Assembly (NCBI RefSeq): GCF_963676685.1
Contig: NC_092344.1
Span: 44,206,001 to 44,270,000 of the forward strand
Length of the DNA: 64,000 bases
Direction of reading: 5' to 3'
From: Mytilus edulis
Lineage: Eukaryota
The stretch's first letter is position 1, and each line of letters starts with the position of its first letter. The position numbers were made by a program, and so were the translations under genes. The notes below the pieces were generated by a model. The model searched no databases, was not told the origin of the DNA, and saw only the letters and a program-made list of their open reading frames with translations. Of the stretch, positions 1,921 through 40,764 are shown one piece after another.

Positions 1921-2099
1921 AGGTTTACGAGCAGCAAATAAGGGAAACTGGGACAAATCCAGCACCTTGGACAGCAGAGGAGCAGAAAATTTTAGAACAA
2001 GCTTTAAAAACCTTTCCTGCCAGTGTAGGGGATAGATGGGAAAAGATATCTGAGACATTACCCACCAGGAGTAAGAAAGATTGTATGAAAAGATATAAG
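1921..2099 (+). CDS. DNAJC2: DNAJC2 exon (SANT2)
   Basis: [45 protein letters not shown], a SANT/Myb repeat; TAG|...|GTATG. Confidence 0.93.
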
Positions 2100-2139
2100 G
2101 TATGACTATGAAGGATACATTGTTATTGTTATGATTATG

Positions 2140-2955
2140 TAAGGACTGGGCAGTTCAAGATGGAAGGTTCAACACCACAAAAGGAAGGTTGGGAATGATT
2201 TTATGCATGATGGTCCAACCGTATGGGAATTAGGGGCCTAAATCAAGCATTTTTCTAACTTCAAGATAATAACTTGTGTAAAAGTATTTCGATTGCCCTG
2301 AAATTGTACCACAATGTTCAATACCACAAGTAGAAGGTTGGGTTTCATTTTGGAGGTTATGGTGCCAACAGTTGAGGAATTAAGGGCCAAAAATAAGCAT
2401 TTTTGTAGTTTCCAGACAATTACTTGTGTGTAATTTTATGGATGTCTCTGACATTGTACCACAAGGTTCCATATTACAAAGTAAAGGCTGGGAATGAGTT
2501 TGGGGGGGGGGGGGGTAATTGCCCTAAACATGCAGGAATTAGGGGCTGAAAAAGGACCAACAAGGATTTATCTATTTTCAGGACAATAACTTCTGTCAAT
2601 AAAGGCAATAAAGGAGAGGCTGTGATTGGGTATGGGGGTAATTGTTTCAATGGGGGATTCAAAAAGTTTGGAAGCGGGCGGATTTTATTAAGGGGTTCAT
2701 TTTTTGTTTGTTTTAAATTTCCAATTTTTTTTTAAAGTTTCAAGAAGAAATTTCCAACTGCACAGTATTGCACAATATATTTCTTTGATTTTTGACCATT
2801 TATTTTCTGTCAGAAACCTGTTTTATGTCTAAAATTTGATCACAATCCAAATTCAGACAGTATCAAGCTTGAATATTGTGTCAAAATTTGCCCCAACTGT
2901 TCAGGGTTCGGCCTCTGTGGTCGTATCAGGCTGCACTCAGCGAAGCATTTTATTT
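2140..2955 (+). mobile_element. Degenerate 5'-truncated HINE-type element in a DNAJC2 intron (family of 4621-6867)
   Basis: Shares ACCACAAAAGGAAGGTTGG...GGAATTAGGGGCC repeat units with 4621-6867; ends in GGTCGTATCAGGCTGCACTCAGCGAAGC, where GGTCGTAT is the inverse of that element's ATACGACC start. Confidence 0.6.
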
Positions 2956-3221
2956 GTTATTATTTTAGATATCATTATAGTATCTAATACTATCCATTTA
3001 TCTAATTCTATTAATTATAATTTTAACCTTATTTTGCATGATTTTTAAAGCATCGGTAAATACAGGTGAGCGACCCAGGCTCTTGAGAGCCTTTAGTTAT
3101 GTCAAGTGGGAAATTTTGCCAAGGGGTCTTTTTTTGGCTTATTTTGTAACAATACACCCTCAATTTATACTTCTCAAAAATAAAGCATTGAACAGTATTA
3201 TAATTTGCCTATATTTTACAG

Positions 3222-3284
3222 GAATTGGTAGAAATTATACGAGCCAAGAAAGCTGCAAAAGATGCAGCTGCCAAGAAGAAGTGA
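3222..3284 (+). CDS. DNAJC2: DNAJC2 last coding exon
   Basis: CAG|ELVEIIRAKKAAKDAAAKKK-TGA; AATAAA at 3289 and 3954. Confidence 0.9.
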   Translation, partial: ELVEIIRAKKAAKDAAAKKK

Positions 3285-4130
3285 GAAGAATAAACAACGT
3301 GATAAAAAACTTGTAGAAGGACATTATATATATATAGACTACTGACAAATCTGAAATTACTCCAGTACAATTGTTTATGACCATTCAGTTAAATGTTCAT
3401 TACAAAAAGTTACATGTATAATGATTAAGAATATGTATGTCATGTCAAATAGTCATGTGATAATACAATATTCCTGTATTTTTTCAAAAAATACTTAACA
3501 TATTAAACTGTTATTTACTTAAGCTTGTTACTGTGTTTGTTTGATGCCCCTACTGAACTCAGTTAGGGGTACATAGTGGTTCACATGTCAGTCTCTTTAT
3601 TGGTCCTTCTGTCTCACCTAACCTAATCTCAATATAATTTAAACCTAATGTCATGGGCATAAAATACAGGTAAAGTTTGATTGAATTTTTTTTAACCAGT
3701 TAAGTGATATGTTTCTTAAAATTGGAAGTATCAATACAAGATCTACAAAAATGCCAATACGACTGAAACCATTTGATGAATCCTAATATGATTTATTGCC
3801 CTAAATTATTTTACGATTATTTTCAGAATTATCTTAAAAACTAGAATTGATAAGTAGAAGCTGTAAACAGCAGTCTTACAACAATTATTTTGTCTGCTTT
3901 CAAAAGTACCATATGATTGAAAGTTGATTTTTTTATAACATGATGTCATAGACAATAAACTGCAGGTAAAGTGTAATTTTGACAGATTTGATATATCGGA
4001 TAAAGGTATGCTAAAGGAAAATGTTTACATGGTTTACCGTAACAATCGAATGGACAAAATAAAAGCATCCTTGAAATCGCAACAAGCTCCTTCGACGGAG
4101 CCTGTTGTGATTTCAAGGATGCTTGGGTAT

Positions 4131-4620
4131 CTAAAACTGACTCAAGGCAAGACGGACTGAGATGGCATCAGCACGTTTTTCAACAGAGGGTTCAAGCATA
4201 GAGGAGACAAGGGATTTTACGATGTCGCTAGTGTTTTCGGGTGAAAAGAGAGGGTGTTTGAGAGTTGAGCTTTGACCATAGAGGTTGCGTCACTATCGGA
4301 GAATGGGAAAGCTCCGAAGAGCATGACGTAGAGCATAACTCCCATACTCCACATGTCGGCTTTCATGGTGTTGTGTTCCATTCCCATAATAACTTCGGGG
4401 GCAGCGTATGGGAGGGTTCCACAAAATTCTTCAGATTCGGCAACAACAACGGTTGATTTGGCAAATCCAAAATCGGCCAGTTTGACACATCCATTTGATA
4501 ACAAGACGTTTTCTAATTTAATGTCATTGTGGGCGATTCCGTTTAAGTGGCAGTATTCGACTGCTTTGACAACTTGAGAGAAGACAGATAGGGTGGCTTC
4601 AACGGACATGAGGCCGTTTT
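4131..4620 (-). pseudogene. 5'-truncated, frameshifted kinase copy (copy 0)
   Basis: Matches the C-terminal two thirds of the array ORF; frameshift near 4240 (TCGGGTGAAAAG vs TCGGGGAAAG); broken by the element at 4621. Confidence 0.92.
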
Positions 4621-6867
4621 TATACGACCGCAAAATTTGAAAAAATTTTCGTCGTATATTGCTATCACGTTGGCGTCGTCGTCGTCCGAATACTTTTAGT
4701 TTTCGCACTCTAACTTTAGTAAAAATGAATAGAAATCTGTGAAATTTTAACACAAGGTTTATGACCACAAAAGGAAGGTTGGAATTGATTTTGGGAGTTT
4801 TAGTCCCAACATTTTAGGAATTAGGGGCCAAAAAGGGCCCAAATAAGCATTTTCTTGGTTTTCGCACTATAACTTTAGTTTAAGTAAATAGAAATCTATG
4901 AAATTTTGACATAAGGTTTATGACCACAAAAGAAAGGTTGGGATTGATTTTGGGAGTTTTGGTTCCAACAGTTTAGGAATTAGGGGCCAAAAAAGGGCCA
5001 AAATAAGCATTATTCTTGGTTTTCGCACAATAACTTTAGTTTAAGTAAATAGAAATCAATGAAATTTTAACACAAGCATACCCGTAGCCAGGGGGGGTTC
5101 GGGGGGTTCGGACGAACCCCCCCTTGAAAACAAATAATGACTGTTAAAGTCAACGTTCTGTTCGAATTGTGACTGTAAAAGTCGAGTTTTTGAGGCCAAC
5201 GAACCCCCCTTTGGAAATTCCTGGCTACGGGCCTGACAAGGTTTATGACCACAAAAGGAAGGTTGGGATTGATTTTTGGAGTTGAGGTCACAACAGTTTA
5301 TGAACTAGGGGCCAAAAAGGGGCCCAAATAAGCATTATTTTTGGTTTTTGCACCGTAACTTTAGTATAAGTAAATAGAAATCTATGAAATTTAAACACAA
5401 GGTTTATGACCATAAAAGGAAGGTTGGGTTTGATTTTGGGAGTTTTGGTCCTTACAGTTTAGGAATAAGGGTCCCAAAGGGTCCAAAATTGAACTTTGTG
5501 TGATTTCATCAAAAATTGAATAATTGGGGTTCTTTGATATGACGAATCTAACTATGTATGTAGATTCTTAAATTTTGGTCCCGTTTTCAAATTGGTCTAC
5601 ATTAAGATCCAAAGGGTCCAAAATTAAACTTAGTTTGATTTTAACAAAAATTGAATCCTTGGGGTTCTTTGATATGCTGAATTTAAAAATGTACTTAGAT
5701 TTTTAATTATTGGCCTAGTTTTCAAGTTGGTCCAAATGGGGGTCCAAAATTAAACTTTGTTTGATTTCATCAAAAATTGAATAAATGGGTTCTTTGATAT
5801 GCCAAATCTAACTGTGTATGTAGATTCTTAATTTTTGGTCCAGTTTTCAAATTGGTCTACATTAAGGTCCAAAGGGTCCAAAATTAAACTAAGTTTGATT
5901 TTAACAAAAATTAAATTCTTGGGCTTATTTGATATGCTTTATCTAAATATGTACTTTGATTTTTGATTATGGGCCCAGTTTTCAAGTTGGTCCAAATCAG
6001 GATTCCATATCAAGTATTGTGCAATAGCAAGAAATTTTCAATTGCACAGTATTGCACAATAGCAAGAAATATCTAATTGCACAATATTGTGCAATAGCAA
6101 TTAATTTTCAATTGGAGTTATCTTTCTTTGTATAGAATAGTAGTTGATAATATATGTTGGAAATTTGCCAGACATGACTATGATGTCATTTTCTATTTTT
6201 ATTTGCCAATAACTTTATGTAAATAACTTCATTGGAAATTTGCCAATATAAAATGTTGCTGATGAAGCTGTTTTTCCTTATCTTATCTAAAATGTTTTTA
6301 GATAATGTATGTTGGACATTTGCCAGACATGACTATGATGTCATTTTCTATTTTTATTTGCCAATAACTTTATGTAAATAACTTCATTGGAAATTTGCCA
6401 ATATAAAATGTTGCTGATGAAGTTTTTTTTATTGTTTTATACAATAAACAATGTATATTCACTTTTACTACCAACCAATCTTTACCATTCAGTGATAACA
6501 AGCACTTTATTTTACATTTTAATATTTTATGATGTATTTAAAAGAGTAGTTATTGTTGCAAACTCCATTAGAAATTTGACTTGATATCAGTTTTGGAAAA
6601 AAGGGAAACGGGGATGTGAAAAAGGGGGGGGGGGTAAATTTTTCTCATTTCAGATTTCATAAATAAAAAGAAAATTTCTTCAAACATTTTTTTGAGAGGA
6701 TTAATATTCAACAGCATAGTGAATTGCTAAAAGGCAAAAACAAACTTTTAAGTTCATTAGACCACATTCATTCTGTGTCAGAAACCTATGCTGTGTCAAC
6801 TATTTAATTTTAGATTTAAAAAGTTTGAAGAAGAAATCTTTAATTGTAAAATTTGTAAAATCTTGAC
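4621..6867 (+). mobile_element. Non-autonomous Helentron/HINE (DINE-like) element, 3'-truncated
   Basis: Starts in a T-run with TATACGAC...GTCGTATA inverted repeat and a (GTC)n microsatellite, then internal tandem repeats. Lacks the terminal hairpin seen in the related copy at ~2920-2950. Confidence 0.75.
5077..5235. mobile_element. 159-bp MITE nested in the HINE
   Basis: TIRs CATACCCGTAGCCAGG / CCTGGCTACGGGCCTG; 5-bp target duplication ACAAG at 5072-5076 and 5236-5240. Confidence 0.88.
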
Positions 6868-6919
6868 AGGTATGCTAAAGGAAAATGTTTACATGGTTTA
6901 CCGTAACAATCGAATGGAC

Positions 6920-6988
6920 AAAAAAAAAGCATCCTTGAAATCGCAACAAGCTCCTACGACGGAGCCTGTTGTGATTTCAAGGATGCTT
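6920..6988 (-). terminator. 28-bp stem-loop plus T9/T10 tract just after the kinase stop codon (one per unit); putative 3'-end formation element
   Basis: Arms 6927-6954 and 6961-6988 (26/28 Watson-Crick), 6-nt loop, A-run 6920-6928 on +. Structure is certain; function is inferred. Confidence 0.6.
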
Positions 6989-6994
6989 GGGTAT

Positions 6995-7732
6995 CTAAAA
7001 CTGACTCAAGGCAAGACGGACTGAGATGGCATCAGCACGTTTTTCAACAGAGGGTTCAAGCATAGAGGAGACAAGGGATTTTACGATGTCGCTAGTGTTT
7101 TCGGGGAAAGAGAGGGTGTTTGAGAGTTGAGCTTTGACCATAGAGGTTGCGTCACTATCGGAGAATGGGAAAGCTCCGAAGAGCATGACGTAGAGCATAA
7201 CTCCCATACTCCACATGTCGGCTTTCATGGTGTTGTGTTCCATTCCCATAATAACTTCGGGGGCAGCGTATGGGAGGGTTCCACAAAATTCTTCAGATTC
7301 GGCAACAACAACGGTTGATTTGGCAAATCCAAAATCGGCCAGTTTGACACATCCATTTGATAACAAGACGTTTTCTAATTTAATGTCATTGTGGGCGATT
7401 CCGTTTAAGTGGCAGTATTCGACTGCTTTGACAACTTGAGAGAAGACAGATAGGGTGGCTTCAACGGACATGAGGCCGTTTTTCATTATGTATTCAAAAA
7501 CATCTCCGAATTCAGCGAATTCCATCAAAACGAAGGCAAATTCTTCGGCTTCGATGATTTCAATGGCTTCGACAATGTTTTCGTGTTTGAGGCTGAGGAA
7601 AGCTTCAAACTCAGTAGAGGTTTTGAGGACTTTTTTAATTGCAACTTTACCGAATACTTCGCTAGAGGCGGAGAAAACTTCTTCAGTTAGGGCTACAACG
7701 TTTGAAAGTCCACTGTTCAATAAAAATTCCAT
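6995..7732 (-). CDS. Intronless Ser/Thr kinase, CAMK group (TSSK/AMPK-like), copy 1
   Basis: 245 aa; VAIK, alphaC Glu, HNDIKLEN, DFG, FCGTLPYAAPE, DMWSMGV, subdomain XI Arg. Confidence 0.92.
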   Translation of the reverse strand: MEFLLNSGLSNVVALTEEVFSASSEVFGKVAIKKVLKTSTEFEAFLSLKHENIVEAIEIIEAEEFAFVLMEFAEFGDVFEYIMKNGLMSVEATLSVFSQVVKAVEYCHLNGIAHNDIKLENVLLSNGCVKLADFGFAKSTVVVAESEEFCGTLPYAAPEVIMGMEHNTMKADMWSMGVMLYVMLFGAFPFSDSDATSMVKAQLSNTLSFPENTSDIVKSLVSSMLEPSVEKRADAISVRLALSQF

Positions 7733-7740
7733 TTTAAATT

Positions 7741-7795
7741 GGCGTGAATTTAGTGTAATAAAGGTATCAAAATACTGAAATTCACGCCTTATATA
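7741..7795 (-). promoter_or_regulatory. TATA box and adjacent inverted repeat upstream of the kinase ATG (one per unit)
   Basis: Minus strand TATATAA (7795-7789), then GGCGTGAATTT...AAATTCACGCC (7788-7741), then ATG at 7732. Confidence 0.6.
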
Positions 7796-8861
7796 GTGAT
7801 ATGGCTGCTACGGACTGTTCCAATAATTGATGCTCAAGGGTGGAAAGTTCAAATAAAGGCTTTCTTACACAATAAAACAGTACATTATTGAACAATCTCC
7901 CCTTTTCATTAATGGTAACTACTCTTACAAACGGTAAACAAAGTATTTGGTTGTACTAGGGCATTTATCTTATAAGTTTACCGTGTTGCCTTTTAACTGT
8001 GGTGTTTACCGTAACCATAAACTTTTACGATAAAGGTTTGCCGTAACCCAACAAGTCATTATACAGTTCAGTTTACCGTTTCGTCGTATGCAAAAATTAC
8101 CACAGCAAGCCAAATGTAAACCGATGAAATCATTTTCGTTTTAAAAGAAGATATGTGTTACCAATATATTTAAGTTATTGGGATTAGAACACGATTCCAT
8201 AAAATATATAACTATGGACTGACCATAAATTCTTGTTTACTGTAACCACATGAAATCGGTTACAAAGCCGATTCTCAAACCTTCAATACAAAGAAAGTTA
8301 GAGGATTGTTAGAGAATAATAGTCAACTTGTTTTCCATTTCTCCCCAAACCCATGAACCTCCGGCTGTAATTTTAAAATGCATTCTTGTTTACCGTAACC
8401 GCTCAATATATTAGTCCCATAATCCCATTATCACAATTAGAATATCTTATGTTATCCTTATAAGCTACAGCTTGCTTTGTTACGGGATTGTGCGGTGATA
8501 CGGTAAACTAGAATAACAATTAATGAATAGACGAAGTCGTAGCTTGCGCCTTCTAATTTTCTGTTTCTCTGCATTCAAGGTTTTTCGGAAGAAACCATTT
8601 TTAATTCACGTCACAGTAAGTCTATTAATGAAAATAGAATGAGTTTGTTGAAACAAAGAAGATGGGAAGATGAATGGAATATAAAATTGATTGATACAAT
8701 TATGTTTACCGTACCCTTATATTGTATCGGATAAAGGTATGCTAAAGGAAAATGTTTACATGGTTTACCGTAACAATCGAATGGACAAAAAAAAAGCATC
8801 CTTGAAATCGCAACAAGCTCCTACGACGGAGCCTGTTGTGATTTCAAGGATGCTTGGGTAT

Positions 8862-9599
8862 CTAAAACTGACTCAAGGCAAGACGGACTGAGATGGCATC
8901 AGCACGTTTTTCAACAGAGGGTTCAAGCATAGAGGAGACAAGGGATTTTACGATGTCGCTAGTGTTTTCGGGGAAAGAGAGGGTGTTTGAGAGTTGAGCT
9001 TTGACCATAGAGGTTGCGTCACTATCGGAGAATGGGAAAGCTCCGAAGAGCATGACGTAGAGCATAACTCCCATACTCCACATGTCGGCTTTCATGGTGT
9101 TGTGTTCCATTCCCATAATAACTTCGGGGGCAGCGTATGGGAGGGTTCCACAAAATTCTTCAGATTCGGCAACAACAACGGTTGATTTGGCAAATCCAAA
9201 ATCGGCCAGTTTGACACATCCATTTGATAACAAGACGTTTTCTAATTTAATGTCATTGTGGGCGATTCCGTTTAAGTGGCAGTATTCGACTGCTTTGACA
9301 ACTTGAGAGAAGACAGATAGGGTGGCTTCAACGGACATGAGGCCGTTTTTCATTATGTATTCAAAAACATCTCCGAATTCAGCGAATTCCATCAAAACGA
9401 AGGCAAATTCTTCGGCTTCGATGATTTCAATGGCTTCGACAATGTTTTCGTGTTTGAGGCTGAGGAAAGCTTCAAACTCAGTAGAGGTTTTGAGGACTTT
9501 TTTAATTGCAACTTTACCGAATACTTCGCTAGAGGCGGAGAAAACTTCTTCAGTTAGGGCTACAACGTTTGAAAGTCCACTGTTCAATAAAAATTCCAT
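8862..9599 (-). CDS. Array kinase copy 2
   Basis: Identical 245-aa translation. Confidence 0.92.
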   Translation of the reverse strand: MEFLLNSGLSNVVALTEEVFSASSEVFGKVAIKKVLKTSTEFEAFLSLKHENIVEAIEIIEAEEFAFVLMEFAEFGDVFEYIMKNGLMSVEATLSVFSQVVKAVEYCHLNGIAHNDIKLENVLLSNGCVKLADFGFAKSTVVVAESEEFCGTLPYAAPEVIMGMEHNTMKADMWSMGVMLYVMLFGAFPFSDSDATSMVKAQLSNTLSFPENTSDIVKSLVSSMLEPSVEKRADAISVRLALSQF

Positions 9600-10728
9600 T
9601 TTAAATTGGCGTGGATTTAGTGTAATAAAGGTATCAAAATACTGAAATTCACGCCTTATATAGTGATATGGCTGCTACGGACTGTTCCAATAATTGATGC
9701 TCAAGGGTGGAAAGTTCAAATAAAGGCTTTCTTACACAATAAAACAGTACATTATTGAACAATCTCCCCTTTTCATTAATGGTAACTACTCTTACAAACG
9801 GTAAACAAAGTATTTGGTTGTACTAGGGCATTTATCTTATAAGTTTACCGTGTTGCCTTTTAACTGTGGTGTTTACCGTAACCATAAACTTTTACGATAA
9901 AGGTTTGCCGTAACCCAACAAGTCATTATACAGTTCAGTTTACCGTTTCGTCGTATGCAAAAATTACCACAGCAAGCCAAATGTAAACCGATGAAATCAT
10001 TTTCGTTTTAAAAGAAGATATGTGTTACCAATATATTTAAGTTATTGGGATTAGAACACGATTCCATAAAATATATAACTATGGACTGACCATAAATTCT
10101 TGTTTACTGTAACCACATGAAATCGGTTACAAAGCCGATTCTCAAACCTTCAATACAAAGAAAGTTAGAGGATTGTTAGAGAATAATAGTCAACTTGTTT
10201 TCCATTTCTCCCCAAACCCATGAACCTCCGGCTGTAATTTTAAAATGCATTCTTGTTTACCGTAACCGCTCAATATATTAGTCCCATAATCCCATTATCA
10301 CAATTAGAATATCTTATGTTATCCTTATAAGCTACAGCTTGCTTTGTTACGGGATTGTGCGGTGATACGGTAAACTAGAATAACAATTAATGAATAGACG
10401 AAGTCGTAGCTTGCGCCTTCTAATTTTCTGTTTCTCTGCATTCAAGGTTTTTCGGAAGAAACCATTTTTAATTCACGTCACAGTAAGTCTATTAATGAAA
10501 ATAGAATGAGTTTGTTGAAACAAAGAAGATGGGAAGATGAATGGAATATAAAATTGATTGATACAATTATGTTTACCGTACCCTTATATTGTATCGGATA
10601 AAGGTATGCTAAAGGAAAATGTTTACATGGTTTACCGTAACAATCGAATGGACAAAAAAAAAGCATCCTTGAAATCGCAACAAGCTCCTACGACGGAGCC
10701 TGTTGTGATTTCAAGGATGCTTGGGTAT

Positions 10729-11466
10729 CTAAAACTGACTCAAGGCAAGACGGACTGAGATGGCATCAGCACGTTTTTCAACAGAGGGTTCAAGCATAGA
10801 GGAGACAAGGGATTTTACGATGTCGCTAGTGTTTTCGGGGAAAGAGAGGGTGTTTGAGAGTTGAGCTTTGACCATAGAGGTTGCGTCACTATCGGAGAAT
10901 GGGAAAGCTCCGAAGAGCATGACGTAGAGCATAACTCCCATACTCCACATGTCGGCTTTCATGGTGTTGTGTTCCATTCCCATAATAACTTCGGGGGCAG
11001 CGTATGGGAGGGTTCCACAAAATTCTTCAGATTCGGCAACAACAACGGTTGATTTGGCAAATCCAAAATCGGCCAGTTTGACACATCCATTTGATAACAA
11101 GACGTTTTCTAATTTAATGTCATTGTGGGCGATTCCGTTTAAGTGGCAGTATTCGACTGCTTTGACAACTTGAGAGAAGACAGATAGGGTGGCTTCAACG
11201 GACATGAGGCCGTTTTTCATTATGTATTCAAAAACATCTCCGAATTCAGCGAATTCCATCAAAACGAAGGCAAATTCTTCGGCTTCGATGATTTCAATGG
11301 CTTCGACAATGTTTTCGTGTTTGAGGCTGAGGAAAGCTTCAAACTCAGTAGAGGTTTTGAGGACTTTTTTAATTGCAACTTTACCGAATACTTCGCTAGA
11401 GGCGGAGAAAACTTCTTCAGTTAGGGCTACAACGTTTGAAAGTCCACTGTTCAATAAAAATTCCAT
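10729..11466 (-). CDS. Array kinase copy 3
   Basis: Identical 245-aa translation. Confidence 0.92.
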   Translation of the reverse strand: MEFLLNSGLSNVVALTEEVFSASSEVFGKVAIKKVLKTSTEFEAFLSLKHENIVEAIEIIEAEEFAFVLMEFAEFGDVFEYIMKNGLMSVEATLSVFSQVVKAVEYCHLNGIAHNDIKLENVLLSNGCVKLADFGFAKSTVVVAESEEFCGTLPYAAPEVIMGMEHNTMKADMWSMGVMLYVMLFGAFPFSDSDATSMVKAQLSNTLSFPENTSDIVKSLVSSMLEPSVEKRADAISVRLALSQF

Positions 11467-12596
11467 TTTAAATTGGCGTGGATTTAGTGTAATAAAGGTA
11501 TCAAAATACTGAAATTCACGCCTTATATAGTGATATGGCTGCTACGGACTGTTCCAATAATTGATGCTCAAGGGTGGAAAGTTCAAATAAAGGCTTTCTT
11601 ACACAATAAAACAGTACATTATTGAACAATCTCCCCTTTTCATTAATGGTAACTACTCTTACAAACGGTAAACAAAGTATTTGGTTGTACTAGGGCATTT
11701 ATCTTATAAGTTTACCGTGTTGCCTTTTAACTGTGGTGTTTACCGTAACCATAAACTTTTACGATAAAGGTTTGCCGTAACCCAACAAGTCATTATACAG
11801 TTCAGTTTACCGTTTCGTCGTATGCAATAATTACCACAGCAAGCCAAATGTAAACCGATGAAATCATTTTCGTTTTAAAAGAAGATATGTGTTACCAATA
11901 TATTTAAGTTATTGGGATTAGAACACGATTCCACAAAATATATAACTATGGACTGACCATAAATTCTTGTTTACTGTAACCACATGAAATCGGTTACAAA
12001 GCCGATTCTCAAACCTTCAATACAAAGAAAGTTAGAGGATTGTTAGAGAATAATAGTCAACTTGTTTTCCATTTCTCCCCAAACCCATGAACCTCCGGCT
12101 GTAATTTTAAAATGCATTCTTGTTTACCGTAACCGCTCAATATATTAGTCCCATAATCCCATTATCACAATTAGAATATCTTATGTTATCCTTATAAGCT
12201 ACAGCTTGCTTTGTTACGGGATTGTGCGGTGATACGGTAAACTAGAATAACAATTAATGAATAGACTAAGTCGTAGCTTGCGCCTTCTAATTTTCTGTTT
12301 CTCTGCATTCAAGGTTTTTCGGAAGAAACCATTTTTAATTCACGTCACAGTAAGTCTATTAATGAAAATAGAATGAGTTTGTTGAAACAAAGAAGATGGG
12401 AAGATGAATGGAATATAAAATTGATTGATACAATTATGTTTACCGTACCCTTATATTGTATCGGATAAAGGTATGCTAAAGGAAAATGTTTACATGGTTT
12501 ACCGTAACAATCGAATGGACAAAAAAAAAAGCATCCTTGAAATCGCAACAAGCTCCTACGACGGAGCCTGTTGTGATTTCAAGGATGCTTGGGTAT

Positions 12597-13334
12597 CTAA
12601 AACTGACTCAAGGCAAGACGGACTGAGATGGCATCAGCACGTTTTTCAACAGAGGGTTCAAGCATAGAGGAGACAAGGGATTTTACGATGTCGCTAGTGT
12701 TTTCGGGGAAAGAGAGGGTGTTTGAGAGTTGAGCTTTGACCATAGAGGTTGCGTCACTATCGGAGAATGGGAAAGCTCCGAAGAGCATGACGTAGAGCAT
12801 AACTCCCATACTCCACATGTCGGCTTTCATGGTGTTGTGTTCCATTCCCATAATAACTTCGGGGGCAGCGTATGGGAGGGTTCCACAAAATTCTTCAGAT
12901 TCGGCAACAACAACGGTTGATTTGGCAAATCCAAAATCGGCCAGTTTGACACATCCATTTGATAACAAGACGTTTTCTAATTTAATGTCATTGTGGGCGA
13001 TTCCGTTTAAGTGGCAGTATTCGACTGCTTTGACAACTTGAGAGAAGACAGATAGGGTGGCTTCAACGGACATGAGGCCGTTTTTCATTATGTATTCAAA
13101 AACATCTCCGAATTCAGCGAATTCCATCAAAACGAAGGCAAATTCTTCGGCTTCGATGATTTCAATGGCTTCGACAATGTTTTCGTGTTTGAGGCTGAGG
13201 AAAGCTTCAAACTCAGTAGAGGTTTTGAGGACTTTTTTAATTGCAACTTTACCGAATACTTCGCTAGAGGCGGAGAAAACTTCTTCAGTTAGGGCTACAA
13301 CGTTTGAAAGTCCACTGTTCAATAAAAATTCCAT
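12597..13334 (-). CDS. Array kinase copy 4
   Basis: Identical 245-aa translation. Confidence 0.92.
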   Translation of the reverse strand: MEFLLNSGLSNVVALTEEVFSASSEVFGKVAIKKVLKTSTEFEAFLSLKHENIVEAIEIIEAEEFAFVLMEFAEFGDVFEYIMKNGLMSVEATLSVFSQVVKAVEYCHLNGIAHNDIKLENVLLSNGCVKLADFGFAKSTVVVAESEEFCGTLPYAAPEVIMGMEHNTMKADMWSMGVMLYVMLFGAFPFSDSDATSMVKAQLSNTLSFPENTSDIVKSLVSSMLEPSVEKRADAISVRLALSQF

Positions 13335-14464
13335 TTTAAATTGGCGTGGATTTAGTGTAATAAAGGTATCAAAATACTGAAATTCACGCCTTATATAGTG
13401 ATATGGCTGCTACGGACTGTTCCAATAATTGATGCTCAAGGGTGGAAAGTTCAAATAAAGGCTTTCTTACACAATAAAACAGTACATTATTGAACAATCT
13501 CCCCTTTTCATTAATGGTAACTACTCTTACAAACGGTAAACAAAGTATTTGGTTGTACTAGGGCATTTATCTTATAAGTTTACCGTGTTGCCTTTTAACT
13601 GTGGTGTTTACCGTAACCATAAACTTTTACGATAAAGGTTTGCCGTAACCCAACAAGTCATTATACAGTTCAGTTTACCGTTTCGTCGTATGCAATAATT
13701 ACCACAGCAAGCCAAATGTAAACCGATGAAATCATTTTCGTTTTAAAAGAAGATATGTGTTACCAATATATTTAAGTTATTGGGATTAGAACACGATTCC
13801 ACAAAATATATAACTATGGACTGACCATAAATTCTTGTTTACTGTAACCACATGAAATCGGTTACAAAGCCGATTCTCAAACCTTCAATACAAAGAAAGT
13901 TAGAGGATTGTTAGAGAATAATAGTCAACTTGTTTTCCATTTCTCCCCAAACCCATGAACCTCCGGCTGTAATTTTAAAATGCATTCTTGTTTACCGTAA
14001 CCGCTCAATATATTAGTCCCATAATCCCATTATCACAATTAGAATATCTTATGTTATCCTTATAAGCTACAGCTTGCTTTGTTACGGGATTGTGCGGTGA
14101 TACGGTAAACTAGAATAACAATTAATGAATAGACTAAGTCGTAGCTTGCGCCTTCTAATTTTCTGTTTCTCTGCATTCAAGGTTTTTCGGAAGAAACCAT
14201 TTTTAATTCACGTCACAGTAAGTCTATTAATGAAAATAGAATGAGTTTGTTGAAACAAAGAAGATGGGAAGATGAATGGAATATAAAATTGATTGATACA
14301 ATTATGTTTACCGTACCCTTATATTGTATCGGATAAAGGTATGCTAAAGGAAAATGTTTACATGGTTTACCGTAACAATCGAATGGACAAAAAAAAAAGC
14401 ATCCTTGAAATCGCAACAAGCTCCTACGACGGAGCCTGTTGTGATTTCAAGGATGCTTGGGTAT

Positions 14465-15202
14465 CTAAAACTGACTCAAGGCAAGACGGACTGAGATGGC
14501 ATCAGCACGTTTTTCAACAGAGGGTTCAAGCATAGAGGAGACAAGGGATTTTACGATGTCGCTAGTGTTTTCGGGGAAAGAGAGGGTGTTTGAGAGTTGA
14601 GCTTTGACCATAGAGGTTGCGTCACTATCGGAGAATGGGAAAGCTCCGAAGAGCATGACGTAGAGCATAACTCCCATACTCCACATGTCGGCTTTCATGG
14701 TGTTGTGTTCCATTCCCATAATAACTTCGGGGGCAGCGTATGGGAGGGTTCCACAAAATTCTTCAGATTCGGCAACAACAACGGTTGATTTGGCAAATCC
14801 AAAATCGGCCAGTTTGACACATCCATTTGATAACAAGACGTTTTCTAATTTAATGTCATTGTGGGCGATTCCGTTTAAGTGGCAGTATTCGACTGCTTTG
14901 ACAACTTGAGAGAAGACAGATAGGGTGGCTTCAACGGACATGAGGCCGTTTTTCATTATGTATTCAAAAACATCTCCGAATTCAGCGAATTCCATCAAAA
15001 CGAAGGCAAATTCTTCGGCTTCGATGATTTCAATGGCTTCGACAATGTTTTCGTGTTTGAGGCTGAGGAAAGCTTCAAACTCAGTAGAGGTTTTGAGGAC
15101 TTTTTTAATTGCAACTTTACCGAATACTTCGCTAGAGGCGGAGAAAACTTCTTCAGTTAGGGCTACAACGTTTGAAAGTCCACTGTTCAATAAAAATTCC
15201 AT
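14465..15202 (-). CDS. Array kinase copy 5
   Basis: Identical 245-aa translation. Confidence 0.92.
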   Translation of the reverse strand: MEFLLNSGLSNVVALTEEVFSASSEVFGKVAIKKVLKTSTEFEAFLSLKHENIVEAIEIIEAEEFAFVLMEFAEFGDVFEYIMKNGLMSVEATLSVFSQVVKAVEYCHLNGIAHNDIKLENVLLSNGCVKLADFGFAKSTVVVAESEEFCGTLPYAAPEVIMGMEHNTMKADMWSMGVMLYVMLFGAFPFSDSDATSMVKAQLSNTLSFPENTSDIVKSLVSSMLEPSVEKRADAISVRLALSQF

Positions 15203-16332
15203 TTTAAATTGGCGTGGATTTAGTGTAATAAAGGTATCAAAATACTGAAATTCACGCCTTATATAGTGATATGGCTGCTACGGACTGTTCCAATAATTGA
15301 TGCTCAAGGGTGGAAAGTTCAAATAAAGGCTTTCTTACACAATAAAACAGTACATTATTGAACAATCTCCCCTTTTCATTAATGGTAACTACTCTTACAA
15401 ACGGTAAACAAAGTATTTGGTTGTACTAGGGCATTTATCTTATAAGTTTACCGTGTTGCCTTTTAACTGTGGTGTTTACCGTAACCATAAACTTTTACGA
15501 TAAAGGTTTGCCGTAACCCAACAAGTCATTATACAGTTCAGTTTACCGTTTCGTCGTATGCAATAATTACCACAGCAAGCCAAATGTAAACCGATGAAAT
15601 CATTTTCGTTTTAAAAGAAGATATGTGTTACCAATATATTTAAGTTATTGGGATTAGAACACGATTCCACAAAATATATAACTATGGACTGACCATAAAT
15701 TCTTGTTTACTGTAACCACATGAAATCGGTTACAAAGCCGATTCTCAAACCTTCAATACAAAGAAAGTTAGAGGATTGTTAGAGAATAATAGTCAACTTG
15801 TTTTCCATTTCTCCCCAAACCCATGAACCTCCGGCTGTAATTTTAAAATGCATTCTTGTTTACCGTAACCGCTCAATATATTAGTCCCATAATCCCATTA
15901 TCACAATTAGAATATCTTATGTTATCCTTATAAGCTACAGCTTGCTTTGTTACGGGATTGTGCGGTGATACGGTAAACTAGAATAACAATTAATGAATAG
16001 ACTAAGTCGTAGCTTGCGCCTTCTAATTTTCTGTTTCTCTGCATTCAAGGTTTTTCGGAAGAAACCATTTTTAATTCACGTCACAGTAAGTCTATTAATG
16101 AAAATAGAATGAGTTTGTTGAAACAAAGAAGATGGGAAGATGAATGGAATATAAAATTGATTGATACAATTATGTTTACCGTACCCTTATATTGTATCGG
16201 ATAAAGGTATGCTAAAGGAAAATGTTTACATGGTTTACCGTAACAATCGAATGGACAAAAAAAAAAGCATCCTTGAAATCGCAACAAGCTCCTACGACGG
16301 AGCCTGTTGTGATTTCAAGGATGCTTGGGTAT

Positions 16333-17070
16333 CTAAAACTGACTCAAGGCAAGACGGACTGAGATGGCATCAGCACGTTTTTCAACAGAGGGTTCAAGCA
16401 TAGAGGAGACAAGGGATTTTACGATGTCGCTAGTGTTTTCGGGGAAAGAGAGGGTGTTTGAGAGTTGAGCTTTGACCATAGAGGTTGCGTCACTATCGGA
16501 GAATGGGAAAGCTCCGAAGAGCATGACGTAGAGCATAACTCCCATACTCCACATGTCGGCTTTCATGGTGTTGTGTTCCATTCCCATAATAACTTCGGGG
16601 GCAGCGTATGGGAGGGTTCCACAAAATTCTTCAGATTCGGCAACAACAACGGTTGATTTGGCAAATCCAAAATCGGCCAGTTTGACACATCCATTTGATA
16701 ACAAGACGTTTTCTAATTTAATGTCATTGTGGGCGATTCCGTTTAAGTGGCAGTATTCGACTGCTTTGACAACTTGAGAGAAGACAGATAGGGTGGCTTC
16801 AACGGACATGAGGCCGTTTTTCATTATGTATTCAAAAACATCTCCGAATTCAGCGAATTCCATCAAAACGAAGGCAAATTCTTCGGCTTCGATGATTTCA
16901 ATGGCTTCGACAATGTTTTCGTGTTTGAGGCTGAGGAAAGCTTCAAACTCAGTAGAGGTTTTGAGGACTTTTTTAATTGCAACTTTACCGAATACTTCGC
17001 TAGAGGCGGAGAAAACTTCTTCAGTTAGGGCTACAACGTTTGAAAGTCCACTGTTCAATAAAAATTCCAT
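16333..17070 (-). CDS. Array kinase copy 6
   Basis: Identical 245-aa translation. Confidence 0.92.
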   Translation of the reverse strand: MEFLLNSGLSNVVALTEEVFSASSEVFGKVAIKKVLKTSTEFEAFLSLKHENIVEAIEIIEAEEFAFVLMEFAEFGDVFEYIMKNGLMSVEATLSVFSQVVKAVEYCHLNGIAHNDIKLENVLLSNGCVKLADFGFAKSTVVVAESEEFCGTLPYAAPEVIMGMEHNTMKADMWSMGVMLYVMLFGAFPFSDSDATSMVKAQLSNTLSFPENTSDIVKSLVSSMLEPSVEKRADAISVRLALSQF

Positions 17071-18200
17071 TTTAAATTGGCGTGGATTTAGTGTAATAAA
17101 GGTATCAAAATACTGAAATTCACGCCTTATATAGTGATATGGCTGCTACGGACTGTTCCAATAATTGATGCTCAAGGGTGGAAAGTTCAAATAAAGGCTT
17201 TCTTACACAATAAAACAGTACATTATTGAACAATCTCCCCTTTTCATTAATGGTAACTACTCTTACAAACGGTAAACAAAGTATTTGGTTGTACTAGGGC
17301 ATTTATCTTATAAGTTTACCGTGTTGCCTTTTAACTGTGGTGTTTACCGTAACCATAAACTTTTACGATAAAGGTTTGCCGTAACCCAACAAGTCATTAT
17401 ACAGTTCAGTTTACCGTTTCGTCGTATGCAATAATTACCACAGCAAGCCAAATGTAAACCGATGAAATCATTTTCGTTTTAAAAGAAGATATGTGTTACC
17501 AATATATTTAAGTTATTGGGATTAGAACACGATTCCACAAAATATATAACTATGGACTGACCATAAATTCTTGTTTACTGTAACCACATGAAATCGGTTA
17601 CAAAGCCGATTCTCAAACCTTCAATACAAAGAAAGTTAGAGGATTGTTAGAGAATAATAGTCAACTTGTTTTCCATTTCTCCCCAAACCCATGAACCTCC
17701 GGCTGTAATTTTAAAATGCATTCTTGTTTACCGTAACCGCTCAATATATTAGTCCCATAATCCCATTATCACAATTAGAATATCTTATGTTATCCTTATA
17801 AGCTACAGCTTGCTTTGTTACGGGATTGTGCGGTGATACGGTAAACTAGAATAACAATTAATGAATAGACTAAGTCGTAGCTTGCGCCTTCTAATTTTCT
17901 GTTTCTCTGCATTCAAGGTTTTTCGGAAGAAACCATTTTTAATTCACGTCACAGTAAGTCTATTAATGAAAATAGAATGAGTTTGTTGAAACAAAGAAGA
18001 TGGGAAGATGAATGGAATATAAAATTGATTGATACAATTATGTTTACCGTACCCTTATATTGTATCGGATAAAGGTATGCTAAAGGAAAATGTTTACATG
18101 GTTTACCGTAACAATCGAATGGACAAAAAAAAAAGCATCCTTGAAATCGCAACAAGCTCCTACGACGGAGCCTGTTGTGATTTCAAGGATGCTTGGGTAT

Positions 18201-18938
18201 CTAAAACTGACTCAAGGCAAGACGGACTGAGATGGCATCAGCACGTTTTTCAACAGAGGGTTCAAGCATAGAGGAGACAAGGGATTTTACGATGTCGCTA
18301 GTGTTTTCGGGGAAAGAGAGGGTGTTTGAGAGTTGAGCTTTGACCATAGAGGTTGCGTCACTATCGGAGAATGGGAAAGCTCCGAAGAGCATGACGTAGA
18401 GCATAACTCCCATACTCCACATGTCGGCTTTCATGGTGTTGTGTTCCATTCCCATAATAACTTCGGGGGCAGCGTATGGGAGGGTTCCACAAAATTCTTC
18501 AGATTCGGCAACAACAACGGTTGATTTGGCAAATCCAAAATCGGCCAGTTTGACACATCCATTTGATAACAAGACGTTTTCTAATTTAATGTCATTGTGG
18601 GCGATTCCGTTTAAGTGGCAGTATTCGACTGCTTTGACAACTTGAGAGAAGACAGATAGGGTGGCTTCAACGGACATGAGGCCGTTTTTCATTATGTATT
18701 CAAAAACATCTCCGAATTCAGCGAATTCCATCAAAACGAAGGCAAATTCTTCGGCTTCGATGATTTCAATGGCTTCGACAATGTTTTCGTGTTTGAGGCT
18801 GAGGAAAGCTTCAAACTCAGTAGAGGTTTTGAGGACTTTTTTAATTGCAACTTTACCGAATACTTCGCTAGAGGCGGAGAAAACTTCTTCAGTTAGGGCT
18901 ACAACGTTTGAAAGTCCACTGTTCAATAAAAATTCCAT
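18201..18938 (-). CDS. Array kinase copy 7
   Basis: Identical 245-aa translation. Confidence 0.92.
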   Translation of the reverse strand: MEFLLNSGLSNVVALTEEVFSASSEVFGKVAIKKVLKTSTEFEAFLSLKHENIVEAIEIIEAEEFAFVLMEFAEFGDVFEYIMKNGLMSVEATLSVFSQVVKAVEYCHLNGIAHNDIKLENVLLSNGCVKLADFGFAKSTVVVAESEEFCGTLPYAAPEVIMGMEHNTMKADMWSMGVMLYVMLFGAFPFSDSDATSMVKAQLSNTLSFPENTSDIVKSLVSSMLEPSVEKRADAISVRLALSQF

Positions 18939-20068
18939 TTTAAATTGGCGTGGATTTAGTGTAATAAAGGTATCAAAATACTGAAATTCACGCCTTATAT
19001 AGTGATATGGCTGCTACGGACTGTTCCAATAATTGATGCTCAAGGGTGGAAAGTTCAAATAAAGGCTTTCTTACACAATAAAACAGTACATTATTGAACA
19101 ATCTCCCCTTTTCATTAATGGTAACTACTCTTACAAACGGTAAACAAAGTATTTGGTTGTACTAGGGCATTTATCTTATAAGTTTACCGTGTTGCCTTTT
19201 AACTGTGGTGTTTACCGTAACCATAAACTTTTACGATAAAGGTTTGCCGTAACCCAACAAGTCATTATACAGTTCAGTTTACCGTTTCGTCGTATGCAAT
19301 AATTACCACAGCAAGCCAAATGTAAACCGATGAAATCATTTTCGTTTTAAAAGAAGATATGTGTTACCAATATATTTAAGTTATTGGGATTAGAACACGA
19401 TTCCACAAAATATATAACTATGGACTGACCATAAATTCTTGTTTACTGTAACCACATGAAATCGGTTACAAAGCCGATTCTCAAACCTTCAATACAAAGA
19501 AAGTTAGAGGATTGTTAGAGAATAATAGTCAACTTGTTTTCCATTTCTCCCCAAACCCATGAACCTCCGGCTGTAATTTTAAAATGCATTCTTGTTTACC
19601 GTAACCGCTCAATATATTAGTCCCATAATCCCATTATCACAATTAGAATATCTTATGTTATCCTTATAAGCTACAGCTTGCTTTGTTACGGGATTGTGCG
19701 GTGATACGGTAAACTAGAATAACAATTAATGAATAGACTAAGTCGTAGCTTGCGCCTTCTAATTTTCTGTTTCTCTGCATTCAAGGTTTTTCGGAAGAAA
19801 CCATTTTTAATTCACGTCACAGTAAGTCTATTAATGAAAATAGAATGAGTTTGTTGAAACAAAGAAGATGGGAAGATGAATGGAATATAAAATTGATTGA
19901 TACAATTATGTTTACCGTACCCTTATATTGTATCGGATAAAGGTATGCTAAAGGAAAATGTTTACATGGTTTACCGTAACAATCGAATGGACAAAAAAAA
20001 AAGCATCCTTGAAATCGCAACAAGCTCCTACGACGGAGCCTGTTGTGATTTCAAGGATGCTTGGGTAT

Positions 20069-20806
20069 CTAAAACTGACTCAAGGCAAGACGGACTGAGA
20101 TGGCATCAGCACGTTTTTCAACAGAGGGTTCAAGCATAGAGGAGACAAGGGATTTTACGATGTCGCTAGTGTTTTCGGGGAAAGAGAGGGTGTTTGAGAG
20201 TTGAGCTTTGACCATAGAGGTTGCGTCACTATCGGAGAATGGGAAAGCTCCGAAGAGCATGACGTAGAGCATAACTCCCATACTCCACATGTCGGCTTTC
20301 ATGGTGTTGTGTTCCATTCCCATAATAACTTCGGGGGCAGCGTATGGGAGGGTTCCACAAAATTCTTCAGATTCGGCAACAACAACGGTTGATTTGGCAA
20401 ATCCAAAATCGGCCAGTTTGACACATCCATTTGATAACAAGACGTTTTCTAATTTAATGTCATTGTGGGCGATTCCGTTTAAGTGGCAGTATTCGACTGC
20501 TTTGACAACTTGAGAGAAGACAGATAGGGTGGCTTCAACGGACATGAGGCCGTTTTTCATTATGTATTCAAAAACATCTCCGAATTCAGCGAATTCCATC
20601 AAAACGAAGGCAAATTCTTCGGCTTCGATGATTTCAATGGCTTCGACAATGTTTTCGTGTTTGAGGCTGAGGAAAGCTTCAAACTCAGTAGAGGTTTTGA
20701 GGACTTTTTTAATTGCAACTTTACCGAATACTTCGCTAGAGGCGGAGAAAACTTCTTCAGTTAGGGCTACAACGTTTGAAAGTCCACTGTTCAATAAAAA
20801 TTCCAT
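20069..20806 (-). CDS. Array kinase copy 8
   Basis: Identical 245-aa translation. Confidence 0.92.
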   Translation of the reverse strand: MEFLLNSGLSNVVALTEEVFSASSEVFGKVAIKKVLKTSTEFEAFLSLKHENIVEAIEIIEAEEFAFVLMEFAEFGDVFEYIMKNGLMSVEATLSVFSQVVKAVEYCHLNGIAHNDIKLENVLLSNGCVKLADFGFAKSTVVVAESEEFCGTLPYAAPEVIMGMEHNTMKADMWSMGVMLYVMLFGAFPFSDSDATSMVKAQLSNTLSFPENTSDIVKSLVSSMLEPSVEKRADAISVRLALSQF

Positions 20807-21936
20807 TTTAAATTGGCGTGGATTTAGTGTAATAAAGGTATCAAAATACTGAAATTCACGCCTTATATAGTGATATGGCTGCTACGGACTGTTCCAATAA
20901 TTGATGCTCAAGGGTGGAAAGTTCAAATAAAGGCTTTCTTACACAATAAAACAGTACATTATTGAACAATCTCCCCTTTTCATTAATGGTAACTACTCTT
21001 ACAAACGGTAAACAAAGTATTTGGTTGTACTAGGGCATTTATCTTATAAGTTTACCGTGTTGCCTTTTAACTGTGGTGTTTACCGTAACCATAAACTTTT
21101 ACGATAAAGGTTTGCCGTAACCCAACAAGTCATTATACAGTTCAGTTTACCGTTTCGTCGTATGCAATAATTACCACAGCAAGCCAAATGTAAACCGATG
21201 AAATCATTTTCGTTTTAAAAGAAGATATGTGTTACCAATATATTTAAGTTATTGGGATTAGAACACGATTCCACAAAATATATAACTATGGACTGACCAT
21301 AAATTCTTGTTTACTGTAACCACATGAAATCGGTTACAAAGCCGATTCTCAAACCTTCAATACAAAGAAAGTTAGAGGATTGTTAGAGAATAATAGTCAA
21401 CTTGTTTTCCATTTCTCCCCAAACCCATGAACCTCCGGCTGTAATTTTAAAATGCATTCTTGTTTACCGTAACCGCTCAATATATTAGTCCCATAATCCC
21501 ATTATCACAATTAGAATATCTTATGTTATCCTTATAAGCTACAGCTTGCTTTGTTACGGGATTGTGCGGTGATACGGTAAACTAGAATAACAATTAATGA
21601 ATAGACTAAGTCGTAGCTTGCGCCTTCTAATTTTCTGTTTCTCTGCATTCAAGGTTTTTCGGAAGAAACCATTTTTAATTCACGTCACAGTAAGTCTATT
21701 AATGAAAATAGAATGAGTTTGTTGAAACAAAGAAGATGGGAAGATGAATGGAATATAAAATTGATTGATACAATTATGTTTACCGTACCCTTATATTGTA
21801 TCGGATAAAGGTATGCTAAAGGAAAATGTTTACATGGTTTACCGTAACAATCGAATGGACAAAAAAAAAAGCATCCTTGAAATCGCAACAAGCTCCTACG
21901 ACGGAGCCTGTTGTGATTTCAAGGATGCTTGGGTAT

Positions 21937-22674
21937 CTAAAACTGACTCAAGGCAAGACGGACTGAGATGGCATCAGCACGTTTTTCAACAGAGGGTTCA
22001 AGCATAGAGGAGACAAGGGATTTTACGATGTCGCTAGTGTTTTCGGGGAAAGAGAGGGTGTTTGAGAGTTGAGCTTTGACCATAGAGGTTGCGTCACTAT
22101 CGGAGAATGGGAAAGCTCCGAAGAGCATGACGTAGAGCATAACTCCCATACTCCACATGTCGGCTTTCATGGTGTTGTGTTCCATTCCCATAATAACTTC
22201 GGGGGCAGCGTATGGGAGGGTTCCACAAAATTCTTCAGATTCGGCAACAACAACGGTTGATTTGGCAAATCCAAAATCGGCCAGTTTGACACATCCATTT
22301 GATAACAAGACGTTTTCTAATTTAATGTCATTGTGGGCGATTCCGTTTAAGTGGCAGTATTCGACTGCTTTGACAACTTGAGAGAAGACAGATAGGGTGG
22401 CTTCAACGGACATGAGGCCGTTTTTCATTATGTATTCAAAAACATCTCCGAATTCAGCGAATTCCATCAAAACGAAGGCAAATTCTTCGGCTTCGATGAT
22501 TTCAATGGCTTCGACAATGTTTTCGTGTTTGAGGCTGAGGAAAGCTTCAAACTCAGTAGAGGTTTTGAGGACTTTTTTAATTGCAACTTTACCGAATACT
22601 TCGCTAGAGGCGGAGAAAACTTCTTCAGTTAGGGCTACAACGTTTGAAAGTCCACTGTTCAATAAAAATTCCAT
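21937..22674 (-). CDS. Array kinase copy 9
   Basis: Identical 245-aa translation. Confidence 0.92.
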   Translation of the reverse strand: MEFLLNSGLSNVVALTEEVFSASSEVFGKVAIKKVLKTSTEFEAFLSLKHENIVEAIEIIEAEEFAFVLMEFAEFGDVFEYIMKNGLMSVEATLSVFSQVVKAVEYCHLNGIAHNDIKLENVLLSNGCVKLADFGFAKSTVVVAESEEFCGTLPYAAPEVIMGMEHNTMKADMWSMGVMLYVMLFGAFPFSDSDATSMVKAQLSNTLSFPENTSDIVKSLVSSMLEPSVEKRADAISVRLALSQF

Positions 22675-23804
22675 TTTAAATTGGCGTGGATTTAGTGTAA
22701 TAAAGGTATCAAAATACTGAAATTCACGCCTTATATAGTGATATGGCTGCTACGGACTGTTCCAATAATTGATGCTCAAGGGTGGAAAGTTCAAATAAAG
22801 GCTTTCTTACACAATAAAACAGTACATTATTGAACAATCTCCCCTTTTCATTAATGGTAACTACTCTTACAAACGGTAAACAAAGTATTTGGTTGTACTA
22901 GGGCATTTATCTTATAAGTTTACCGTGTTGCCTTTTAACTGTGGTGTTTACCGTAACCATAAACTTTTACGATAAAGGTTTGCCGTAACCCAACAAGTCA
23001 TTATACAGTTCAGTTTACCGTTTCGTCGTATGCAATAATTACCACAGCAAGCCAAATGTAAACCGATGAAATCATTTTCGTTTTAAAAGAAGATATGTGT
23101 TACCAATATATTTAAGTTATTGGGATTAGAACACGATTCCACAAAATATATAACTATGGACTGACCATAAATTCTTGTTTACTGTAACCACATGAAATCG
23201 GTTACAAAGCCGATTCTCAAACCTTCAATACAAAGAAAGTTAGAGGATTGTTAGAGAATAATAGTCAACTTGTTTTCCATTTCTCCCCAAACCCATGAAC
23301 CTCCGGCTGTAATTTTAAAATGCATTCTTGTTTACCGTAACCGCTCAATATATTAGTCCCATAATCCCATTATCACAATTAGAATATCTTATGTTATCCT
23401 TATAAGCTACAGCTTGCTTTGTTACGGGATTGTGCGGTGATACGGTAAACTAGAATAACAATTAATGAATAGACTAAGTCGTAGCTTGCGCCTTCTAATT
23501 TTCTGTTTCTCTGCATTCAAGGTTTTTCGGAAGAAACCATTTTTAATTCACGTCACAGTAAGTCTATTAATGAAAATAGAATGAGTTTGTTGAAACAAAG
23601 AAGATGGGAAGATGAATGGAATATAAAATTGATTGATACAATTATGTTTACCGTACCCTTATATTGTATCGGATAAAGGTATGCTAAAGGAAAATGTTTA
23701 CATGGTTTACCGTAACAATCGAATGGACAAAAAAAAAAGCATCCTTGAAATCGCAACAAGCTCCTACGACGGAGCCTGTTGTGATTTCAAGGATGCTTGG
23801 GTAT

Positions 23805-25540: not shown

Positions 25541-25731
25541 GATTGTGCGGTGATACGGTAAACTAGAATAACAATTAATGAATAGACTAAGTCGTAGCTT
25601 GCGCCTTCTAATTTTCTGTTTCTCTGCATTCAAGGTTTTTCGGAAGAAACAATGCTTAATTCACGTCACAGTAAGTCTACTAATGAAAATAGAATGAGTT
25701 TGTTGAAACAAAGCAGTTGGGATGATGAATG
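25541..25731. repeat. Partial extra copy of the unit's distal spacer (245-bp period), diverged in its right part
   Basis: GATTGTGCGG... at 25296 recurs at 25541. Confidence 0.9.
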
Positions 25732-26113
25732 ACGTATTGTTTATAAATAGTATTTGTGTACCTCATTTTGAGGCGCATTAGGGATATTAACCGGCCATCT
25801 GAAAGTCAACTATTTACTCAAATTTCGTGGTTTTAATCGAGGACGTATATTATGTTTGTTTTACCTCCTTGTTATAATGTAAAAAAGGTATTGAAATAAA
25901 AACAATATTGAAATTCAAGCCGTTATATGCATTGCCTTATCCAAGTCTTGTTTGAACGGGGTGAATGATTTCCATTAATCCTTTCTCGTGTAAAAAAAAA
26001 GTACAGAAATGTTACTTCCCCATTTCAATTGTTTCAAAATAGATTTTATGGCGTGATACCTTCAAGGGTAGTCGCCTTTAAAATAAGATCATTATAAGAT
26101 TATTCGTGTTTCA

Positions 26114-40723: not shown

Positions 40724-40764
40724 CTTGTTTTGAATGGAATACTTCATTTGTTGAATCAGTAACC
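40724..40764 (-). CDS. SFMBT1: SFMBT 41-bp micro-exon
   Basis: CAG|...|GTATG; VTDSTNEVFHSKQ; phase 2-1 is exactly what is needed to join the flanking exons in frame. Confidence 0.8.

Follow-up and report, generated by a model that had tools for sequence, protein, structure and literature searches.

Does the head-to-tail array of a kinase gene on contig NC_092344.1 of Mytilus edulis descend from a mobile element with defined ends, or from a gene duplicated in place? The array occupied positions 3994-25540 of the 64-kb stretch of DNA analysed here (the window). A first-pass annotation had read its repeat unit as a discrete element mobilised in trans, with both array ends on the same TATCGG hexamer. 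At a rough probability of 55%, we preferred a long-standing tandem array, under concerted evolution, in which an intronless TSSK-like kinase gene is repeated beside DNAJC2.

The repeat unit and its kinase gene

The array consisted of one partial unit, a 2.2-kb insertion, one near-full unit and nine full units, with each unit of about 1.87 kb carrying one intronless kinase gene. The full units were 1867-1868 bp long and 99.8-100% identical, and only 4 columns varied across the nine; seven consecutive units were identical to one another, and the remaining differences fell in blocks at few columns. Units were numbered from the T of TATCGG in the reference unit (8725-10591). The leftmost partial unit (3994-4621; unit positions 1-626) had a sharp edge at TATCGG against unrelated DNA. 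The near-full unit (6868-8724), behind the insertion, started not at TATCGG but at unit position 11, within the left arm of the inverted repeat found at the junctions. As in a tandem gene array, whole-gene units lay head-to-tail and were homogeneous within the array, and decayed or partly converted copies were found at its edges. A motif scan found ten GTTT[AG]C[CT]GT motifs per unit, nine of them in the spacer at 9798-10580 (9798-, 9843, 9871, 9903, 9938, 10102, 10255, 10367- and 10571) and the tenth at 8763; the sole further match in the window outside the array was at 25555, in unit-derived flanking DNA.

The gene (8862-9599, minus strand) encoded a 245-aa TSSK-like Ser/Thr kinase (Pkinase, E 1e-50), and 10 copies in the window were intact. 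The TSSK name was taken from database labels; the closest named relatives were TSSK-like proteins of Mytilus mussels, with named non-mussel TSSKs 36-40% identical. Catalytic residues K33, E41, D116, K118 and N121, together with DFG and APE, were invariant in 25 aligned proteins, and the kinase had no glycine-rich loop. H-x-D carried N, C, S or G where R is expected, and the other catalytic residues were kept in relatives at 67-100% identity.

A hairpin with 28-bp arms, followed by a T run, was located just past the kinase stop codon (8794-8855, minus strand; folding z -10.2, 0/200 shuffles). It started 7 nt past the stop and was present in every unit. In the 537 nt examined 3' of the hairpin, the kinase strand contained no AATAAA; its first ATTAAA lay 257 nt further on, past the junction. 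The hairpin and T run may signal the 3' end in an unusual way or give rise to small RNAs. An Rfam search returned 3 matches, all far below the gathering score, and no family was assigned to the hairpin.

Unnamed relatives of the kinase at 67-83% identity (P0003-P0019) were mostly on short contigs, several of them 1.7-2.2 kb and near unit length. Three members of one cluster, whose representative was 78% identical, were on contigs all of 17,111 bp, a shared size that hints at a gene cluster in a distant relative. The tandem arrangement may be an old one in the kinase family. Among viral contigs, a single-protein query found no kinase relative, and an alignment query found 73 loci whose best segments were 22-47% identical, none of the kinase family. 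The 49 loci found in prokaryote genomes (22-42% identity) included none of the kinase family either. One exact 17-mer match in an 80-kb viral contig (L002) was taken as chance.

The two edges and the surrounding locus

Similarity to the unit began exactly at TATCGG 3994, in agreement with the first-pass annotation. The left flank was the 3' end of DNAJC2, a convergent neighbour whose last exons lay at 1923-3285 on the plus strand and whose AATAAA (3954-3959) stood 35 bp before the array's TATCGG. The idea that this flank is itself a decayed unit was rejected, its scores against the unit being at shuffle level. The flank sequence GATATATCGG matched the junction spacer ATTGTATCGG at 6/10 positions, and no arm of the junction's inverted repeat was found in it. 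Any in-place duplication necessarily puts its left edge on the junction sequence, and the coincidence seen here is what such a duplication would give.

The insertion behind the partial unit (4622-6867, plus strand) lay in a T run and had a 5' inverted repeat, a GTC microsatellite and internal tandem repeats, in the layout given in the available text of PMC7492417. It does look like a truncated HINE; its 3' end was not found. Its 159-bp repeats were interrupted by a short GC-rich element (5077-5235). A similar TTGACAG-containing stretch stood at the end of the left flank (3976-3989) and at the end of the sequence preceding the 6868 unit (6859-6870), which may be chance.

On the right, the last full unit ran to TATCGG at 25535-25540 as first annotated, but the claim that the array ended there, with both ends in register, failed: unit-derived DNA continued for 192 bp and decayed colinear pieces extended to 28411. 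The caveat attached to that claim, that the right flank is unit-derived and the break may be simple microhomology, was borne out. At 25535-25540 (plus strand) the last full unit jumped to unit position 1629, with the loss of unit positions 7-1628 and a CGG microhomology (7/9) between TTGTATCGG and TTGTTACGG, the latter being the unit at 1629. The following 25541-25732 was a plus-strand copy of unit positions 1629-1820, identical for 110 bp and then with 8 mismatches in 82 bp. Three decayed relics followed, all on the plus strand. The first (25796-26027) matched unit positions ~842-1051, comprising the kinase 5' end and promoter (nhmmer E 0.018; 1/300 shuffles reached the score; 88/122 over 25904-26027). 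The second (26415-26469) matched unit positions 1049-1103 at 40/53, with a score of 40 that was within background when taken alone. The third (28220-28411) matched 1193-1397 at 129/186, and was the best of 279 tiles, with 0/300 shuffles reaching it. The relics were same-strand and colinear at about 70% identity, and divergence grew outward. The similarity excess across all ten 300-bp tiles beside the array was not significant (p 0.45); only the three tiles with relics stood out. Beyond the last full unit, then, came a near-identical copy and colinear decayed relics: the modern array passes into older copies of its own unit, and 25540 marks where a deletion begins.

Further right, exons of a gene with MBT repeats and a SLED domain were located at 37770-46395 on the minus strand, and a 395-aa acidic frame at 48447-49634 may be part of it. 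The first annotation had seen no recombinase gene, and the 73 reading frames outside the array indeed contained no recombinase or transposase above the cut-off. A weak integrase-core match at 52590-52892 (E 0.003, below the cut-off) is perhaps a transposon relic.

The kinase family adjoined DNAJC2 in other assemblies as well. In M. galloprovincialis, accessions of the two were adjacent or near-adjacent on contigs of equal size (VDH94444/49 and VDH94455/56); in another M. edulis assembly they were neighbours by accession, likewise on contigs of equal size (CAG2242126, CAG2242127); and in M. trossulus they were on one chromosome. Judged by accession order and contig size, the array locus beside DNAJC2 is common to Mytilus assemblies and hence old, in keeping with a tandem gene array, whose locus related species would share. 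In a tree of 28 proteins, the DNAJC2-side copies formed one group (95/91 with those of M. coruscus); a sister family, 89-91% identical, stood apart and appeared as accession runs on other chromosomes. Arrays were found on three chromosomes in M. trossulus, and many tandem accessions in other assemblies. Since arrays of the sister family sit on other chromosomes, the gene has moved.

The joint between units

The first-pass annotation had described the internal junction (8712-8739) as TACCCTTAT-ATTGTATCGG-ATAAAGGTA, and these letters were confirmed; the sequence was present 9 times, from 8725 to 23667. The GTTTACCGTA motifs said to flank it were found at 8704 and 8763, but both were on the plus strand and were direct rather than inverted copies, belonging to the unit's ten GTTT[AG]C[CT]GT motifs. 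The 9-bp arms with 8/9 matches around a 10-bp spacer were present as described, but proved unremarkable alone and common by chance: within the unit, 10 positions had arms of 8/9 with a 0-12-bp spacer, as had 4.1% of the 11-bp windows from flanking DNA, and 1.8% of 6000 random joins between spacer and 3' sequence reached them.

The arms were, however, longer than had been seen. The inverted repeat covered 8696-8755, with 25-bp arms (8696-8720 and 8731-8755) paired at 18/25 around the 10-bp spacer (8721-8730). Pairings of 13/16, 18/25 and 20/30 were reached by 0.1, 0.1 and 0.07% of random joins, respectively, at thresholds picked after viewing the data. The inverted repeat is real, because arms of 18/25 occurred in only 0.1% of random joins. 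In the arms, the motif of the unit itself stood in two copies inverted to each other, one good and the other degenerate.

Breaks were found near the joint at 3994 (unit position 1), 25540 (position 6) and 6868 (position 11). An older break may lie near 25780, where an anchored alignment gave P 0.01 at one of three lengths and 0.07 and 0.10 at the others. Two further breaks within 20 bp of the joint among five breakpoints would have a rough P of about 0.001. The joint is thus special, with an inverted repeat longer and rarer than first annotated and with breaks clustered at it. A cruciform or stable hairpin was rejected, the joint folding no better than shuffles (z 0.14), and hairpin fragility therefore fails to explain the clustering. 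Without a stable hairpin, recognition of the joint, if there is any, would more probably go through a protein than through a cruciform.

The same joint was found in independent data. A metagenome scan returned 1 locus, contig L001, which was 98.6% identical, had the same head-to-tail joint and carried more symmetric arms (20/25 and 23/30). Its exact terminal repeat with a period of 1870 fitted a circle and a tandem alike. Contigs from read runs were compared over 3000-4621 in 4 of 24 runs (X15, X16, X17 and X20). Loose ends in X15 and X17 contained the head-to-tail joint; X20 had a contig in a similar place, and X16 showed none. Among the matches listed for the four runs there was no empty site or other flank at 3994, single-copy DNA being barely assembled. 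One X16 contig (record 13) spanned 3858-4008, reaching only 15 letters into the unit, too short to count as bridging. Over 3994-4154, one contig type only was found in three runs, with no abundant family sharing the left end, a comparison of low power. Unit depth was several times flank depth in the run contigs, which is not a copy-number measure. The sister family was compared with the run contigs over coding DNA only. All 4 runs contained a second paralogue family (4178-4621) whose coding DNA was about 90% identical; where both families were shown, its depth was about half that of the first. In the parts compared, families 1 and 2 differed at 10 synonymous and 11 non-synonymous codons.

How the array may have arisen

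The old tandem array was supported by the unit-derived right flank, the CGG microhomology at 25540, the DNAJC2 neighbourhood with the grouping of those copies in the protein tree, and the presence of the same joint in L001 and the read runs, and further by the invariant catalytic residues in 25 proteins, the hint of clustering from the shared 17,111-bp contig size and the lack of a recombinase or transposase above the cut-off in 73 frames. In one founding duplication, the upstream spacer's far end would have been fused at TATCGG to DNA lying 137 bp beyond the stop codon; a single such duplication would place the left edge and all junctions in one register. The unit would then have been multiplied and homogenised by unequal crossing-over and gene conversion. 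Two events would have altered the right side: a deletion that began at the joint and used microhomology, and a crossover that led into an older copy. Most likely, the inverted repeat is not a cruciform but a paired protein-binding site that would have favoured or fixed the joint.

Histone repeats, 5S repeats and Drosophila Stellate are arrays under concerted evolution. The mussel array resembled them in its near-identical, head-to-tail, intronless whole-gene units, in its decayed and transposon-hit edges and in its sister arrays elsewhere; it differed in its unit, a divergent TSSK-like kinase without a glycine-rich loop, and in a joint with a long imperfect inverted repeat. No account of the array was found in open-licence literature on Mytilus TSSK or testis-specific kinases and bivalve Cryptons. 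Even as an ordinary array, it would mark the amplification, specific to mussels and across several chromosomes, of a compact TSSK-like kinase with no earlier description found in that literature; a germline kinase that has been amplified is a candidate for a part in sperm function or in genetic conflict. Against the old array stood the 0.1% of chance joints reaching 18/25 arms, the clustering of breaks at the joint, the sister arrays on other chromosomes and the non-significant similarity excess over all tiles (p 0.45). A rare inverted repeat exactly at the sole true boundary, with recurrent breaks there, is left as odd under this reading.

These oddities would be accounted for by an ancient gene-carrying element, a possible origin that we hold only tentatively. 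Its ends would be the 6-bp direct repeat and the offset inverted arms; it would have been moved in trans by a tyrosine recombinase or transposase and expanded by unequal crossing-over, with the enzyme still cutting the joint at times and leaving deletions. The long inverted repeat exactly at the left edge, more symmetric in L001, pointed this way, as did the ten arm-motif copies inside the unit with none in unrelated DNA of the window, the clustering of breaks at a joint likelier read by a protein, and the arrays on three M. trossulus chromosomes. The hexamer abutted one arm and stood 4 bp away from the second, a layout like that at the ends of elements moved by recombinases. If the joint were an enzyme-cut end, a recombinase-type route would move and amplify a host-type gene in an animal. 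That the unit is a discrete mobilised element, as first annotated, kept the special joint in its favour but lost the argument from two ends in register; the locus was common to Mytilus assemblies, and no empty site, second flank or enzyme was found, at low power. The array had only one true outer boundary, with no foreign DNA after the right TATCGG; its left flank matched the spacer at 6/10 and had no arm; and the single contig type over 3994-4154 in three runs (low power) also spoke against an element.

Parallels among known elements were partial. Cryptons have terminal direct repeats of 4-6 bp in the available text of PMC3212892, and are described as lacking terminal inverted repeats in the accessible parts of PMC3212892 and PMC13465315. 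The 6-bp boundary sequence here is alike, and the circular intermediate proposed for Cryptons in those parts would yield such a joint. The array differed in having no recombinase and no second outer end: a 4-6-bp direct repeat against foreign DNA was found at the left edge, but unit-derived DNA followed at the right. TATCGG was not among the listed Crypton termini (0 matches in 6 supplement files of PMC3212892; TATGG 44). Typical tyrosine-recombinase sites, as given in the same text, have 11-13-bp arms and 6-8-bp spacers, against arms of 10/13 (11/13 in L001) around a 10-bp spacer here. Starships carry direct repeats, often together with inverted repeats that are asymmetric (available parts of PMC13465315 and PMC10104507), and their empty sites and movement are proven (same portion of PMC10104507). 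The unit shared with them a short direct repeat with an offset inverted repeat and, by that portion of PMC10104507, a cargo gene; in contrast, Starships as described there are fungal and very large, have their own recombinase and have shown empty sites and movement, none of which was seen here.

Tandem DNA transposons often have junction deletions (available text of PMC5932611). Arrays of hobo, P and Bari1, as presented there, likewise have inverted ends facing across a short spacer, junction deletions and expansion by unequal exchange; unlike in those arrays, the spacer here was not fully repeated in the left flank (6/10), there was no transposase, and the cargo was a conserved host-type gene. 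A transposon with terminal inverted repeats, inserted in tandem, would have its spacer as a target duplication in both flanks, which GATATATCGG and ATTGTATCGG did not show; imperfect arms of 18/25-20/25, rarer than chance, were seen. Helentrons/HINEs and Replitrons, which are rolling-circle elements, also have tandem copies and a hairpin near one end (accessible text of PMC7492417 and PMC10288648). The unit was rejected as either, its ends having no T-run insertion site, microsatellite, subTIRs or 3' palindrome of the kind described in that text; the HINE-like element at 4622-6867 is a separate insertion and not the kinase unit.

A bolder form of the ancient element seems unlikely to us: an animal 1.87-kb gene-carrying element designed like a small Starship, with a 6-bp direct repeat, offset inverted arms and arm motifs in its interior, and with a conserved, probably germline kinase as sole cargo, would have moved between chromosomes in trans and founded the mussel arrays, possibly as a selfish germline amplifier.

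Arrays on several chromosomes would also arise if one array were seeded from another by an extrachromosomal circle, through ordinary recombination between units and with no special sites, as in histone and 5S repeats; for tandem repeats, the available part of PMC3225859 reports circles made up of exact multiples of the unit. We consider this improbable, because the break would be expected anywhere, whereas the left edge lay within the spacer of an inverted repeat that, the 3' hairpin apart, is the best in the unit. In its strict version, the first annotation has a circle or a rolling-circle concatemer inserting recently and in register, with a duplicate TATCGG at either end. This version agreed with the exact 6-bp overlap between the left edge and the last full unit and with the near-identity of the units. 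It was largely refuted by a right flank that was unit interior for 110 bp with decayed relics beyond, by a locus common to species and by the later insertion and deletion at the left, and is very improbable. An assembly artefact in tandem structure or copy number, as seven consecutive units without a difference might suggest, is scarcely credible, given that units differed at few columns in blocks, that the joint recurred in independent data and that many tandem accessions were present in other assemblies.
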